Positions 1 through 5,100 of a DNA stretch of 5,682 nt are shown in pieces. The notes beneath the pieces are model-generated. The model saw only the letters and a list, made by a program, of their open reading frames with translations, did not search any database and was not told where the DNA came from. How positions within the stretch are numbered: position 1 is the first letter of the stretch; each line of letters starts with the position of its first letter. Source of the DNA: Escherichia coli. GTDB taxonomy: Bacteria > Pseudomonadota > Gammaproteobacteria > Enterobacterales > Enterobacteriaceae. A program made the position numbers and the translations under genes. The stretch is taken from NCBI RefSeq assembly GCF_003334785.1, contig NZ_QOWV01000042.1. The stretch is one strand, 5' to 3'.

Positions 1-68
1 GGTCATCGCCGAAACTGACGGTTTTCAGACTCTTGATCTCATCGTCCAGATAGCGGTTCAGCTCGAGG
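1..68. repeat. Partial copy of the same 75-bp repeat unit at the window start
   Basis: Positions 1-68 are near-identical to repeat units at 5163-5230. The array of copy A continues beyond the window edge. Confidence 0.85.
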
Positions 69-229
69 TGTTCATAATCTTCACTGACGCTAAAACTCTT
101 AACATTTTGTAGCATCTTATATTCGTACTTCAGCTTCTCTATTAACTCATTACTTAAATCATCAAGAGCATCATGGTCATATTTCGATGACATCAGATGC
201 GATTTTTTAATCATAAATCTGCCATCCAT
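1..229 (-). CDS. Acidic tandem-repeat protein, copy A, N-terminal part only (3' end beyond window start)
   Basis: ATG at 229-227 (minus) with SD AAGGAG at 241-236 and a 6-nt spacer, 13 nt after the stop of the upstream PIN-like gene. Hand translation of 229..2 is open throughout: MDGRFMIKKSHLMSSKYDHDALDDLSNELIEKLKYEYKMLQNVKSFSVSEDYEHLELNRYLDDEIKSLKTVSFGDD. The last residues are the first copy of the 25-aa repeat seen in full at 5101-5652. Not in the ORF track because it has no stop inside the window. Confidence 0.6.
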   Translation of the reverse strand, partial: MDGRFMIKKSHLMSSKYDHDALDDLSNELIEKLKYEYKMLQNVKSFSVSEDYEHLELNRYLDDEIKSLKTVSFGDD

Positions 230-242
230 ATGATACTCCTTC

Positions 243-1427
243 TTACTCTGTTATTGATGAAAGGATTGAGCTCATCTTCTGAATAGAAGATAACTTTCCT
301 TTCATTAGAAGTCTAATTTTAGCCATTATCTCAGGATCTGTCGCAGATTCTAGCTTTTTAGATAGACCAGCAATTTCTGCCTTTTCTCTTTTTATTCTGT
401 TTTCTAGGAGTGCTCGGTGTTCACTGTTGCTTGTGTTACTTCCAGCTCCATACCCATTCCCTGTTGAAATGTTGAGGTTTTCGGTGTTTATTTTAAGATC
501 GAATGCGTTGTTTATATTTAAGATTAGTTCTTTTGTGTTTATTACATCAAAAAATTGAACGCTTGAGTTATTTAGCATTTCCTCTCTTAATATAGCGTGA
601 ACGCCTTTGTTTTCTCTATTTTCTTTATCTCTACCAACTTTAAATATGAAGTCATCTTTTGCATCATTAGTGATTAGGAAAACGTTTTTCGCACCTGTTG
701 ATGCGGCATGCTCTAGAGTTTCTTTCCATATGTAGAAATCACCATAAGCTCTTTGATAAGTAATGCCGTCATAAGAGAATATATTGTCTGGCTTTCCTAC
801 CTTGTCTGCGTCACAGAATCCAGGGGGCGTTTTTAATTCATACCTTGATTTACATTCAGCATCTAATCCATTAATGTATTCTTGGTCCTTTTTTACGCCT
901 ATTTTTCCAGAGAATATGTTGTCAATCCATTCTCTATGTATGTCTTTTGTATTTAACTCATCAATTGATTCATTGAGTTTTCCATACATATCCTCTAGTC
1001 CTGAGTTTAATAAATCAATGGATTTTTTTATTAACTCAGATACTTGTCTGTTTAGCCCTTCGTAATGCCTTGCTTTGGAGTTGTTGCATTTTTCTAATAG
1101 TTTTGATGAATAAGATAATAAATCAACAACAGGAGATGTTGTTGTTGATATCAAGTGTTTCTGATCGTCGATAACCCCTAATCTTCTTCTCTGATACTCC
1201 AACGCAGTAAAATAAGGGAGATATATATTTTCTCTTATCTGTTCTATTGATTTCTTTATCGCAGATATTGTTTCCTGGTTGTTTCTATATAGGTCTAATA
1301 TGACATTGGTGTCAAAAACAAATAATGTATCATCTGCCCTGTATATATCAGGATTGTCCTTTATGTTGCCTGTATAAAATCCTTTAAACATATCCCTCAT
1401 CGACATAAAAAAGCCCCTATTATTCAT
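243..1427 (-). CDS. PIN-like (VapC-type) putative nuclease with a large internal insertion and a C-terminal coiled-coil tail
   Basis: Long minus-strand ORF (track 243..1493, stop TAA at 245-243). Contains FDTNVILDL (first PIN acidic motif), a conserved Glu in TALEYQ about 38 residues later, and LITNDAKDDF (the T-x-D-x-D-F motif typical of VapC/PIN) about 215 residues after the first Asp, implying an inserted domain. The track's first codon at 1493-1491 is TTG, not ATG. In-frame ATGs at 1472, 1427 and 1406 are alternatives; 1406 has a GGGG SD-like run 7 nt upstream. A perfect TTGACA on the minus strand at 1469-1464 could be a -35 element. The gene is strongly AT-rich compared with the plasmid backbone. 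Confidence 0.7.
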   Translation of the reverse strand: MNNRGFFMSMRDMFKGFYTGNIKDNPDIYRADDTLFVFDTNVILDLYRNNQETISAIKKSIEQIRENIYLPYFTALEYQRRRLGVIDDQKHLISTTTSPVVDLLSYSSKLLEKCNNSKARHYEGLNRQVSELIKKSIDLLNSGLEDMYGKLNESIDELNTKDIHREWIDNIFSGKIGVKKDQEYINGLDAECKSRYELKTPPGFCDADKVGKPDNIFSYDGITYQRAYGDFYIWKETLEHAASTGAKNVFLITNDAKDDFIFKVGRDKENRENKGVHAILREEMLNNSSVQFFDVINTKELILNINNAFDLKINTENLNISTGNGYGAGSNTSNSEHRALLENRIKREKAEIAGLSKKLESATDPEIMAKIRLLMKGKLSSIQKMSSILSSITE

Positions 1428-1501
1428 TTCTGTTTTGTTCTTTTCGTCAGTTGCTGACTCTTGTGTCAACATCAAAATCAATCGATCATGCAAATGATCT
1501 C

Positions 1502-1530
1502 TTGAGATTCCTTTTTTCTACGCGTAATCT
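1502..1530 (+). promoter_or_regulatory. RNA II (replication primer) promoter
   Basis: -35 TTGAGA at 1502-1507, 17-bp spacer, -10 TAATCT at 1525-1530. This matches the ColE1/pMB1 RNA II promoter arrangement. Confidence 0.8.
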
Positions 1531-1542
1531 TTCTTCCTGTAA

Positions 1543-1646
1543 ACGAAAAAACCACCCTGGCAGGTGGTCTTTTCGAAGGTTAGATAATCCTGGCAGATTC
1601 TCTAACCGTGGTAACAGTCTTGTGCGAGACATGTCACCAAATCCGT
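1543..1646 (-). ncRNA. RNA I, antisense copy-number control RNA
   Basis: Minus-strand promoter with -35 TTGAAG (complement of 1682-1677) and -10 TACACT (complement of 1658-1653). Predicted start is near 1646. Intrinsic terminator is the hairpin at 1551-1568 followed on the minus strand by a U-run (complement of 1545-1550). Length is about 100 nt, as expected for RNA I. Confidence 0.75.
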
Positions 1647-1652
1647 CCTTTC

Positions 1653-1682
1653 AGTGTAGCCTCACTCAGGCCACCACTTCAA
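1653..1682 (-). promoter_or_regulatory. RNA I promoter
   Basis: Same hexamers and position relative to RNA II as in pMB1/ColE1 (TTGAAG, 18-bp spacer, TACACT). Confidence 0.7.
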
Positions 1683-2049
1683 GAACTCTCGATACATCTC
1701 TCGCACATCCTGTTTACCAGTGGCCGTTGCCAATGGCGATTAGTCGTGTCTTTTCGGGTTGGACTCAAGACGATAGTTACCGGATAAGGCGCAGCGGTCG
1801 GACTGAACGGGGGGTTCGTGCATACAGTCCAGCTTGGAGCGAACTGCCTACCCGGAACTGAGTGTCAGGCGTGGAATGAGAAACCGCGGCCATAACAGCG
1901 GAATGACACCGGTAAACCGAAAGGCAGGAACAGGAGAGCGCACGAGGGAGCCACCAGGGGGAAACGCCTGGTATCTTTATAGTCCTGTCGGGTTTCGCCA
2001 CCTCTGACTTGAGCGTCGATTTTTGTGATGCTCGTCAGGGGGGCGGAGC

Positions 2050-2060
2050 CTATGGAAAAA
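2050..2060 (+). other. Origin of replication (RNA II to DNA transition, oriV)
   Basis: The motif gcggagcctatggaaaaa lies about 520 nt downstream of the RNA II start, corresponding to the ColE1 primer processing and DNA start point. Confidence 0.65.
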
Positions 2061-2299
2061 GCGCCTGCGGCGCGGCCTTTTTCGGGGTTTCCGTTTTTGC
2101 GCACATGTTCTTTCCCGGGTTATCCCCGGATTCTGTGGATAACTGTGTTACCGTTTTTGTGTGAGTCAGTACCGCTCGCCGCAGCCGAACGACCGAGCGT
2201 AGCGAGTCAGTGAGCGAGGAAGCGGAAGAGCGCCGGAAGCTACATTTTCTCCTTACGCATCTGTGCGGCATTTCACACCCGGCATGGTGCACTTTTCAT

Positions 2300-2400
2300 A
2301 CCATCCGCACTGATGCTGCATGAGTAAGCCAGTATACACTCCGCTATCGCTACGTGACTGGGTCATGGCTGCGCCCCGACACCCGCAAGGTCAACGGCCT
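2300..2400 (-). other. bom / oriT (basis of mobility) with nic region
   Basis: taagccagtatacactccgctatcgctacgtgactgggtcatggctgcgccccgacacccgc is near-identical to the pBR322/ColE1 bom region and lies between ori and rop as in those plasmids. The nick is expected on the minus strand within the complement of taagccag (2325-2332). Confidence 0.7.
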
Positions 2401-2477
2401 GACGCGCCCTGACGGGCTTGTCTGCTCCCGGCATCCGCTCACAGGCAAGCTGTGACCGTCTCCGGGAGCTGTATGTG

Positions 2478-2669
2478 TCAGAGGTTTTCACCGTCATCAC
2501 CGAAACGCGCGAGGCAGCTGCGGTAAAGCTCATCAGCGTGGTCGTGAAGCGATTCACAGATGTCTGCCTGTTCATCCGCGTCCAGTTCGTTGAGTTTCTC
2601 CAGCAGCGTTAATGTCTGGCTTCTGATAAAGCGGGCCATGTTAAGGGCGGTTTTTTCCTGTTTAGTCAC
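2478..2669 (-). CDS. rop: Rop/Rom, RNA I-RNA II pairing modulator
   Basis: 63-aa ORF MTKQEKTALNMARFIRSQTLTLLEKLNELDADEQADICESLHDHADELYRSCLARFGDDGENL, recognised as the Rop protein. It converges on RNA II, as in pBR322. Confidence 0.95.
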   Translation of the reverse strand: MTKQEKTALNMARFIRSQTLTLLEKLNELDADEQADICESLHDHADELYRSCLARFGDDGENL

Positions 2670-2701
2670 TGATGCCTCCGTGTAAGGGGGGATTTCTGTT
2701 C

Positions 2702-3058
2702 ATGGGGGTAATGATACCGATGAAACGCGAGAGGATGCTCACCATACGGGTTACTGATGATGAACATGCCCGGTTACTGGAACGCTGTGAGGGTAAACAA
2801 CTGGCGGTATGGATGCGGCGGGTCTGCCTGGGTGAGCCGGTTGCCCGTTCCGGGAAGCTGCCGACACTGGCACCGCCGTTACTGCGCCAGCTGGCTGCCA
2901 TCGGGAATAACCTGAATCAGACAGCGAGGAAGGTGAACAGCGGGCAGTGGTCTTCCGGCGACCGGGTTCAGGTGGTGGCCGCACTGATGGCCATCGAGAG
3001 AGAGTTGCGCAGCTTACGGCAGGTCGTCAGGGGACAGGGAGCGCGGGATGATAGTTAA
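2702..3058 (+). CDS. mbeC: Mobilization accessory protein MbeC (MobC family, ribbon-helix-helix)
   Basis: Translation ...MLTIRVTDDEHARLLERCEGKQLAVWMRRVCLGEPVARSGKLPTLAPPLLRQLAAIGNNLNQTARKVNSGQWS... matches the ColE1-family MbeC fold. The 5' part is colinear with the mob remnant retained in pBR322. Start is uncertain among ATGs at 2702, 2711, 2720 and 2735; 2702 has an AAGGGGGG run about 10 nt upstream. The stop overlaps the mbeA start. Confidence 0.8.
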   Translation: MGVMIPMKRERMLTIRVTDDEHARLLERCEGKQLAVWMRRVCLGEPVARSGKLPTLAPPLLRQLAAIGNNLNQTARKVNSGQWSSGDRVQVVAALMAIERELRSLRQVVRGQGARDDS

Positions 3059-3424
3059 GTTTCATGCCAGGGGGAAAGGTGGTGGCAGTGGTCCGGTTGA
3101 TTACCTTCTGGGAAGGGAGCGTAACCGGGAAGGTGCAACGGTACTGCAGGGTAACCCGGAAGAAGTCCGGGAACTCATCGATGCCACGCCATTTGCGAAG
3201 AAATATACGTCCGGTGTTCTGTCGTTCGCGGAGAAGGAACTGCCGCCGGGAGGACGTGAAAAAGTTATGGCGAGCTTTGAGCGTGTACTGATGCCCGGTC
3301 TTGAAAAAAATCAGTACAGCATCCTGTGGGTGGAGCACCAGGACAAGGGACGGCTTGAGCTGAATTTTGTCATTCCGAACATGGAGCTACAGAGCGGAAA
3401 ACGCCTCCAGCCGTACTACGACCG

Positions 3425-3476
3425 GGCAGACAGGCCGAGAATTGATGCCTGGCAGACAGGCCGAGAATTGATGCCT
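3425..3476. repeat. Exact 26-bp tandem duplication inside mbeA
   Basis: Two perfect adjacent copies of ggcagacaggccgagaattgatgcct, followed by a further partial copy ggcagac. 26 is not a multiple of 3, so the duplication shifts the frame. Confidence 0.9.
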
Positions 3477-3761
3477 GGCAGACGCTGGTTAATCACCATT
3501 ACGGGCTGCATGACCCCAACGCCCCGGAGAACCGCCGGATACTGACTCTCTCTGATAACCTGCCGGAAACGAAACAGGCGCTTGCAGAGAGCGTCACACG
3601 CGGGATAGACGCTCTTTATCATGTCGGGGAGATAAAAGGCCGTCAGGATGTGATTCAGGCGCTCACAGAGGCAGGGCTTGAAGTGGTCAGGGTGACGCGA
3701 AGCAGTATCAGCATTGCAGACCCGAACGGTGGGAAGAATATCAGGCTGAAAGGAGCATTTT

Positions 3762-4292
3762 ATGAGCAATCTTTTACAGACGGGCGCGGAGTTCGAGAAA
3801 AAGCTGAAAGAGAGAGCCGAATCTACAGAGACAATGCTGAACGACGAGTTCAGGAAGCTCGAAGAATCTGTAAACAGGGAGCTGACCTCAAACGAATCTT
3901 TAATCAGGAACGCTATCAACGACCATACAGCAGCCCTGAAAGAACTTCTGGAGAGGTATCAGAAAACGACCGTCAGCACGATGGACACACACTGGCAAAC
4001 CGTGCTGAAAATGAGCGTGAAACGCTGGCTGTGGCTGATTATCGTCTCAGTACTGATGTTTGCCACGACCGGGAGTCTGCTGTGGTACCAGGGCATGAAG
4101 ATAAACGAGAATATGAATATTCTCCGCGAGCAGAAAGAGAGTCTGGAGAAGCTGAACGCGAAGACATGGGGCGTGCGTTATCACGAGGACAGCAACGGAC
4201 GTTTTCTGGTGTTGCCGAAGGGGATGAAAGCCGAAACGAACTGGACGAAGGACAACGGCAAACTGAACGCAGTGAGACTGGTGCAGGAGTGA
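3762..4292 (+). CDS. mbeB: Mobilization protein MbeB (nested within mbeA in an alternative frame)
   Basis: 176-aa ORF starting MSNLLQTGAEFEKKLKERAES with a hydrophobic segment WLWLIIVSVLMFATTGSLLW. RBS AGGAG is 6 nt upstream of the ATG. Overlapping arrangement inside mbeA is as in ColE1. Confidence 0.8.
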   Translation: MSNLLQTGAEFEKKLKERAESTETMLNDEFRKLEESVNRELTSNESLIRNAINDHTAALKELLERYQKTTVSTMDTHWQTVLKMSVKRWLWLIIVSVLMFATTGSLLWYQGMKINENMNILREQKESLEKLNAKTWGVRYHEDSNGRFLVLPKGMKAETNWTKDNGKLNAVRLVQE

Positions 4293-4298
4293 CAGAGC

Positions 4299-4532
4299 AT
4301 GACGGAGCTGGAAAGACATTTGCTGAACGCCTTAGAGCAACTGCAACAGGACTATATGCAGCGGCTGAACGAATGGGAGAGCGCCTTCGTGGAATTGCAG
4401 AAAATGTTTTCGCTTACGCAACGGGACAACGCGATGCTGAACGAGCGGGTCATGCAGTTGAGTCAGCAGGTGCAGCACTTGAGCGAGCGGACAGAACGCT
4501 TGAGCCAGTTATACAGCGAGAACAGGAGATAA
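4299..4532 (+). CDS. mbeD: Mobilization protein MbeD (nested within mbeA)
   Basis: 77-aa ORF MTELERHLLNALEQLQQDYMQRLNEWESAFVELQ..., predicted coiled coil. AGGAG lies 9 nt upstream of the ATG. Position immediately after mbeB is as in ColE1. Confidence 0.7.
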   Translation: MTELERHLLNALEQLQQDYMQRLNEWESAFVELQKMFSLTQRDNAMLNERVMQLSQQVQHLSERTERLSQLYSENRR

Positions 4533-4632
4533 GGGACGAACGGCTGATACAGGAGCGCGAACATGCGTTATCCCTGGAGCGTGAGCGCCAGCCGGAAATA
4601 CAGGAACGCACACTGGATGGCCCTTCGCTGGG

Positions 4633-4839
4633 ATGGTAATCAGAGACAGGCTAAAATGTTGTCAGCGCGTTTCCGGTGCATTTTTTGGGATAATGGTTGG
4701 TTCGGGGGCACCGGGAACGCGCTTCAGTCAGACCTTGCTGAAAACACAGGAACGCGTTAAAACGCATACGGGCGCGATTCTGGTGTATCTTTTGTTGCTG
4801 TGTTTTGCCGTTATTGCCAGATCGCGCTCATTCCCCTGA
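4633..4839 (+). CDS. Small hydrophobic protein, possible MbeE
   Basis: 68-aa ORF whose ATG overlaps the mbeA stop (ATGGTAA) and which has a hydrophobic stretch ILVYLLLLCFAVIA. No convincing SD. Assignment is by position only. Confidence 0.3.
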   Translation: MVIRDRLKCCQRVSGAFFGIMVGSGAPGTRFSQTLLKTQERVKTHTGAILVYLLLLCFAVIARSRSFP

Positions 4840-4879
4840 ATTTCTGTTTTTCCGCTCCGGTTCCGTCTTCTGCCTTTCC

Positions 4880-5090
4880 GAAAGTATGAAAAAAATCCGT
4901 TTCAGCAGTCTCTGGCTGGAAATTCCTGCGTGATTCACATGGCTGCATAGCTATGCATGTGGTTAAAATTTACCGGGTGCGATCGCGGCAGTTTTTCGGG
5001 TGGTTTGTTGCCATTTTTACCTGTCTGCTGCCGTGATCGCACCGAACGCGTTTCAGTGGTGCGTACAATGGGATGTTATGGTAAATGGCT
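4880..5090. other. cer-like XerCD multimer-resolution site with upstream accessory sequences
   Basis: Core ggtgcgtacaa-tgggatg-ttatggtaaat at 5058-5086 resembles the ColE1 cer XerC arm, central region and XerD arm. Upstream sequence gcggcagtttttcgggtggtttgttgccatttttacctgtctgctgccgtgatcgc and the palindrome tgcatagctatgca resemble the cer accessory and ArgR-box region. Confidence 0.7.
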
Positions 5091-5100
5091 CTCGCTAGTT

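Follow-up and report, generated by a model that had tools for sequence, protein, structure and literature searches.

The window, i.e., the whole stretch of 5,682 nucleotides that was analyzed, represents a ColE1-family mobilizable plasmid carrying at positions 5058 to 5086 a new sequence variant of a well-known element type, the cer-type Xer recombination site. The plasmid is already present in GenBank, where this site is unannotated. Based on comparative sequence analysis, the site probably (at a probability of about 0.75) represents a functional cer-type resolution site of this ColE1-family plasmid and, at the same time, the joint between its backbone and its cargo.

Plasmid context and architecture of the core

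RNAI was detected by means of Rfam at 1543-1645 on the minus strand, so that RNAII is encoded on the plus strand, and ORFs for Rop, MobC/MbeA, MbeB and MbeD-type proteins are present in the window. Megablast searches against PLSDB matched at least 5000 ColE1-like plasmids. Among these, the E. coli ECOR10 plasmid RCS83_pIII (NZ_LT985292.1, 5912 bp) is essentially the same plasmid, with identities of 100% for window positions 1-1542 and 99.85% for positions 1543-5621; the difference is confined to a 75-bp tandem-repeat region. Within the MbeA-type relaxase gene, a perfect 26-bp tandem duplication (2.3 copies) was observed at 3425-3483. This gene is split into two ORFs (3048-3545 and 3650-4639), and RefSeq contains just a 165-aa relaxase fragment for the ECOR10 plasmid, so that mobilization of the plasmid may be defective.

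The site is composed of the XerC-binding arm GGTGCGTACAA (5058-5068), the central (crossover) region TGGGATG (5069-5075) and the XerD-binding arm TTATGGTAAAT (5076-5086), all on the plus strand, which adds up to 11 + 7 + 11 = 29 nt. The XerC arm is the same as that of ColE1 cer and is included in the published xrs list; the XerD arm is shared with ColE1 cer and most plasmid xrs. The 29-nt core was the sole match in the window when the exact pattern was searched with up to three mismatches, and likewise the single match of the degenerate pattern GGTGCGYRYAA-N6-8-TTATGKTAAAT. A chance match was ruled out by 200 dinucleotide-preserving shuffles, from which 0 core matches are expected. Small ORFs extending over the core (4957-5115 on the plus strand and 4970-5104 on the minus strand) were regarded as spurious.

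The first-pass annotation had described a cer-like core possessing the ColE1 arms and a variant central region of 7 instead of 8 nt, and this description proved to be correct. In the ColE1 record NC_001371, the core reads GGTGCGTACAA TTAAGGGA TTATGGTAAAT, and thus both 11-bp arms of the window site are identical to those of ColE1 cer. Alignment to this record revealed a true shortening of the centre by 1 nt, accompanied by five substitutions; the earlier parse is therefore not off by one, and identity with canonical cer is excluded. An alternative parse shifted towards a 6-bp centre was also rejected, since the resulting XerC arm, GTGCGTACAAT, would share only 2 of its 11 positions with the dif arm. 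The core shows the features of plasmid xrs, namely 11-bp arms, a centre of 6-8 bp and the inner bases ..AA and TTAT... With its 7-nt centre it falls outside the strict ColE1 cer type (30-bp core, 8-bp TTAAGGGA), and with its 29 bp also outside the class featuring a 6-bp centre (dif-like or type II hybrid-like, 28-bp core).

A centre of 7 nt is nevertheless ordinary for plasmid Xer sites. Plasmid xrs were defined by two 11-bp arms and a centre of 6-8 bp, the sequence of which is unconserved (Fournes et al. 2025, PMC11724359). Previously characterized sites include the 7-bp site of NTP16 (TGAGACG), and the xrs catalogue lists many 29-bp sites, featuring for example TGCGACG, TGGGACG or TAAGGGA (PMC11724359). 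Among the published centres, TGGGACG and TGCGACG are nearest to TGGGATG. The 7-bp sites of NTP16, of pLST424C-10 and others (TGGGACG) and of pETEC_5 (TGCGACG) share with the window site the 29-bp core, the 7-bp spacing, the first T and the last G of the centre, the XerD arm and an accessory sequence of the ArgR type. They differ from it by 1-2 nt in the centre and, for NTP16 and pLST424C-10, by the XerC arm GGTGCGCGTAA.

In order to evaluate the distribution of the site, the exact 29-mer was searched in several sequence collections. It was absent from the supplementary xrs listing of PMC11724359 and from all 5,426 complete E. coli genomes, and it occurred in one of 72,556 PLSDB records, namely the ECOR10 plasmid RCS83_pIII. 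Scanning of metagenomes with the 20-mer AATGGGATGTTATGGTAAAT yielded four contigs (L006-L009). Two of them, L006 and L007, carry the exact 29-mer, belong to the plasmid lineage of the window and share its right flank; L008 and L009 were excluded, as they feature no XerC-like arm and an unrelated context. A widespread occurrence of the exact 29-mer was thus ruled out by the PLSDB, complete E. coli genome and metagenome scans. Furthermore, 17 contigs with the ColE1 arms and any centre of 6-8 nt were found among 100,044 species-representative genomes, none of them containing TGGGATG; their centres are TTAAGGGA, TGCGACG, TAAGGGA, TAAGGGG and TTAGAGCG.

Two side observations were made in these scans. 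The ColE1-type cer cores of the 17 contigs (L010-L026) were located on short contigs, many of which are filed as Streptomyces, Bacillus, Corynebacterium, Hymenobacter and other non-enterobacteria, and these most likely represent contaminating plasmid DNA in those assemblies. Moreover, the 9.2-kb metagenome contig L006 (QZMB01000834.1) contains two unlike cer-type cores as direct repeats (512-539 and 6301-6329), i.e., GGTGCGGGCAA followed by CGGATG and the TGGGATG site of the window, with near-identical accessory DNA at each. Either two ColE1-type plasmids have naturally fused into a cointegrate here, or the contig is a chimera produced by assembly.

Accessory DNA and predicted dimer resolution

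Upstream of the core, about 115 bp of ColE1-like accessory sequence align with ColE1 cer throughout. This stretch (4944-5057, plus strand) lies on the XerC side and represents the predicted region of PepA/ArgR wrapping, which may reach back to approximately 4880, corresponding to the whole accessory extent of about 180 bp. For the 180 nt to the left of the core, identity amounts to 76% with ColE1 and to 96-98% with pETEC_5, p5217 and L019. At the outer end of the aligned stretch, a palindrome resembling an ArgR box, TGCATAGCTATGCAT (4944-4958, plus strand), aligns with the ColE1 box TGCATAGGTATTCAT, from which it differs at 2 of 15 positions. As counted from the sequences, the distance from the start of the putative box to the XerC arm is 114 nt, compared to 113 nt for ColE1. 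Boxes of this type are also indicated in published accessory sequences (PMC11724359). Accordingly, the window has the layout that characterizes cer-type sites, in which accessory DNA adjoins the XerC arm and contains an ArgR box about 100 bp from the core.

The order of ArgR box, XerC arm and XerD arm along the plus strand, the strand of RNAII, agrees with the orientation reported as invariant in this family, in which the ArgR side comes first relative to RNAII transcription (PMC2831885). ColE1 cer exhibits the same orientation and is likewise flanked by the mbe genes on one side and the cargo on the other; its right-hand cargo is unrelated to that of the window. Similarity to the cer accessory DNA and the XerC arm was also observed on Shigella virulence plasmids of the pINV type (~210 kb, e.g., NZ_MW396859.1, 181577-181748), which show 86-90% identity to window positions 4898-5069; this similarity stops at the central region.

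Within the accessory DNA, a long imperfect hairpin was predicted at 4976-5043 on the plus strand (RNAII sense), with a minimum free energy of -43.5 kcal/mol and a z-score of -5.8. Among 14 diverse cer relatives, compensatory changes were found in 9 of 18 consensus pairs, and the hairpin of the corresponding Rcd region is conserved in ColE1 cer. Rcd is a checkpoint RNA known from ColE1-type resolution sites (PMC4393325, PMC5935869, PMC2831885), and based on PMC5935869 and PMC2831885 the hairpin was interpreted as a putative Rcd-like RNA. A scan of positions 4800-5200 for sigma-70 promoters and terminators gave no match; its spacer range of 16-18 nt excludes the 15-bp spacer reported for Pcer (PMC5935869). 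At the gathering score, Rfam gave no match in the Rcd region, RNAI being the single family found in the window.

By homology with ColE1 cer, we infer that the site would resolve plasmid dimers following the steps described previously (PMC2699498, PMC5357621, PMC9947245). ArgR would bind to the box at 4944-4958, and PepA would wrap the ~115-180 bp of accessory DNA of the two directly repeated sites of a dimer. XerC would then occupy 5058-5068 and XerD 5076-5086, and exchange of the top strands by XerC at the border between arm and centre would lead to a Holliday junction, from which host processes independent of Xer would complete the reaction to yield monomers. Meanwhile, the Rcd-like hairpin RNA predicted to be encoded by the intervening DNA would serve as dimer checkpoint, delaying cell division.

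It is highly improbable that the site is instead an inactive relic, in which the 7-bp spacing or the hybrid centre disables catalysis and the plasmid relies on its copy number. Precedents for such a loss can be named: some catalogued xrs located beside ArgR-type accessory sequences were judged inactive, as on the Yersinia pPCP plasmids (PMC11724359), and variants of the mwr core and its ArgR box can resolve poorly (PMC2699498). However, both arms of the window site are perfect consensus sequences, 7-bp sites are among the characterized xrs (PMC11724359), and accessory DNA, ArgR box and hairpin are all intact. Moreover, the core is the only xrs of the plasmid, and the same core was retained in four independent sequences.

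Backbone and cargo on either side of the core

To the right of the XerD arm, a spacer of 14 nt (5087-5100), comprising the first bases of the cargo-specific flank, leads to the stop codon of a repeat-protein gene; this flank is identical in a Klebsiella variicola plasmid (CP044052) and in the E. coli FDAARGOS_1248 plasmid. The gene, a tandem-repeat ORF on the minus strand (5101-5652) encoding a protein of 183 aa, corresponds to 'copy B' of the first-pass annotation, which had placed the site directly against its 3' end as marker of the cargo boundary. Adjacency is roughly right, although the 14-nt gap separates arm and stop codon, and the boundary itself is well supported by the comparisons described below.

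The cargo consists of this repeat-protein gene, followed by a gene for a PIN_8-domain protein. A 75-bp tandem array at 5125-5621 (6.6 copies, 91% matches) encodes 25-aa repeats (..LNRYLDDEI[MK]SLKTVSFGDDHEL..), the copy number of which varies between the window, the ECOR10 plasmid (CDS of 927 nt), the K. variicola plasmid and the metagenome contigs. The start of a second, short paralogous gene was located at position 115 on the minus strand, running off the start of the window, and the window tail (5622-5682, 61 nt) is an approximately 72% paralogue of this head region, with no match in PLSDB. The PIN_8 protein (PF18476, E = 1.4e-41) comprises 416 aa and is encoded at 243-1493 on the minus strand. 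K. variicola CP044052 and E. coli CP069548 carry the same gene at 99-100% identity, and distant homologues are encoded by many plasmids. Provided that the window is circular, the PIN_8 gene shares its strand with the repeat-protein genes and directly precedes them, and together these genes may constitute an operon. The 183-aa repeat protein gave no match in Pfam or PADLOC, and searches of NCBIfam and PADLOC returned nothing meaningful for the two cargo proteins.

In total, 1081 PLSDB records matched window positions 4500-5682, one of which, the ECOR10 plasmid, covers at least 80% of the query. In an evenly spread selection of 60 of the 1081 records, all matches reaching the core end between 5060 and 5091, mostly at 5069 (after the XerC arm and the T) or at 5086, the outer end of the XerD arm and most frequent end point of backbone homology. 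Overall, the homology of the backbone to hundreds of plasmids stops at 5069 or 5086-5091. Among 18 loci with a 125-nt accessory stretch at least 94% identical to the window, 10 different centres of 6, 7 or 8 bp and 14 different right flanks were counted; the sampling of loci comprised about 38 in all. The right flank of the window was found in only three PLSDB records. These comprise the window's own type represented by the ECOR10 plasmid (GGTGCGTACAA, TGGGATG, accessory identity 100%), E. coli FDAARGOS_1248 (GGTGCGTACAA, TTGGATG, 82%; CP069547 and CP069548, which seem to be parts of a single plasmid of ~5.9 kb) and K. variicola CP044052 (GGTGCGGGCAA, GGGATG, 64%).

Rightward from GGGATG (GGATG in FDAARGOS_1248), the three cargo-sharing plasmids are 98-100% identical. 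Identities to the window on the left and right of the core are 97% vs. 50% for pETEC_5 and 98% vs. 39% for p5217, but 64% vs. 98% for CP044052 and 82% vs. 100% for CP069547. This reversal places the switch of ancestry in the first 1-2 bases of the central region. Strand exchange by XerC is known to occur at the border between XerC arm and centre (PMC5357621, PMC2699498). One right half thus occurs on three different left halves, with the switch located within 2 nt of this border, and as far as sequence comparison can tell, the core is hereby shown to be the joint between backbone and cargo.

The other end of the shared segment, which is about 99-100% identical in the K. variicola and FDAARGOS_1248 plasmids, was observed at about 2000-2230, close to the origin predicted ~555 nt after the start of RNAII (~1541). 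Mismatches to the K. variicola plasmid begin at 2003 and become dense from 2061, and those to FDAARGOS_1248 are dense from 2228. As this end does not coincide with a Xer site, Xer recombination cannot have made both joints. The location of this end suggests that these chimeric plasmids may recurrently be joined at the origin region as well.

Origin and partner specificity of the central region

For the core, a hybrid origin is proposed. Its left half, composed of accessory DNA, GGTGCGTACAA and the T, would originate from a ColE1 backbone lineage of E. coli. The segment on the right extends from GGGATG and the XerD arm over the repeat-protein gene and the PIN_8 gene to RNAI/RNAII, ending at approximately the origin, and it is likewise present behind other XerC halves. 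A rare Xer exchange between a ColE1-type site (arm plus T...) and a site of the GGGATG type, followed by processing of the mismatched centres, probably gave rise to the 7-nt centre. The chance that the Xer exchange itself created this centre is estimated as slightly better than even. Sites of the GGGATG type with a 6-bp centre (CloDF13, and GGTGCGGGCAA followed by GGGATG in K. variicola CP044052 and the published list) share with the window site the six XerD-proximal bases and the XerD arm; they differ from it by the XerC arm and by the T next to this arm, which is additional in the window. CP044052 moreover shares the entire right flank and the cargo at 98-99%, whereas its accessory sequence is just 64% identical.

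Hybrid Xer sites were described before. Reportedly, Summers (1989) obtained hybrids of cer and the CloDF13 site that are comparable to the one considered here. Efficient Xer recombination requires closely related centres (PMC11705084). According to the account of Cornet 1994 contained in PMC9947245, unlike sites recombine rarely and yield hybrid sites, with XerC acting first and the junction being processed independently of Xer. As far as dif/psi hybrids (Cornet 1994) are outlined in PMC9947245, and likewise for C7/D9-type sites of Acinetobacter, the two halves derive from two lineages with the switch at the crossover, and the sites flank exchangeable gene modules, as in the window. Unlike these, the putative window hybrid is deduced from comparative sequence data, and it shows a length change of 1 nt: a clean break-and-join by XerC between GGTGCGTACAA|T... 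and ...|GGGATG predicts a 6-bp centre, and 7 bp were observed. An additional assumption is therefore needed, namely repair of a heteroduplex, a 7-bp parent that has escaped sampling or an indel of 1 nt at a later stage.

Alternatively, the centre may differ from that of ColE1 by ordinary mutation and 1-nt indels, with the module boundary arising from homologous recombination in the arms or the accessory DNA. TGGGATG and TTGGATG are separated by one substitution, and part of the variation could therefore be plain mutation; AGAGATG and TAGAGATG are likewise one event apart, the centre sequence is described as unconserved (PMC11724359), and the origin-side end of the shared segment cannot be an Xer joint. 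This explanation is nonetheless considered unlikely. Ten centres were found among loci that are 94-98% identical over the 125-nt accessory stretch, and so much change within 7 nt goes far beyond what a flank divergence of 2-6% would predict. Furthermore, homology flips no more than 2 nt from the XerC cleavage border in three lineages, and an 11-bp arm represents a very short target for recombination of the RecA type.

In the first-pass annotation, it had been suggested that the site may recombine with like sites only. With regard to efficiency this is a reasonable principle, but as stated it is not supported. In the strong form of this idea, the centre would act as a compatibility barcode, and the site would recombine with identical sites only and would not fuse the plasmid with co-resident ColE1-type plasmids. 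Inter-plasmid Xer recombination was seen only between closely related centres (PMC11705084), and dif x psi crosses are very inefficient as summarized in PMC9947245. Likewise, near-identical cer left halves carry a striking diversity of centres, and contig L006 keeps its two unlike direct-repeat sites without deletion. The same diversity is, however, accounted for equally well by a centre that travels with the right-hand cargo, and the possible chimeric assembly of L006 weakens its testimony. Moreover, the topology imposed by the accessory proteins already confines cer to intramolecular events (PMC2699498). The occurrence of the same centre, XerD arm and cargo on three XerC halves suggests that an exchange between unlike sites gave rise to the window site itself, and this history weakens the strict version of the barcode, which is judged quite unlikely. 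For dimer resolution, partner specificity is irrelevant, since the two sites within a dimer of the same plasmid are identical. That the centre diversity among near-identical cer left halves is maintained as a label of recombination compatibility is very doubtful; if true, such a label would limit the fusion of co-resident ColE1-type plasmids while still permitting rare module swaps, and the 7-bp joint of T and GGGATG would represent a fresh label originating from a cross between 8/7-bp and 6-bp sites.

Xer sites as seams of module exchange between plasmids, including ColE1-type and Acinetobacter plasmids, have been described previously (PMC6764390, PMC9947245, PMC11705084), and the site matters little by itself. 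Its recognition provides a useful annotation fix, as the plasmid would carry a standard Xer/ArgR/PepA dimer-resolution locus that is unannotated in the database records, and the site could be useful as a test pair for recombination between unlike centres. For the ColE1 family, it offers a clean natural case, resolved almost to the single base, in which a cer core probably serves as a seam in the reshuffling of cargo and backbone.
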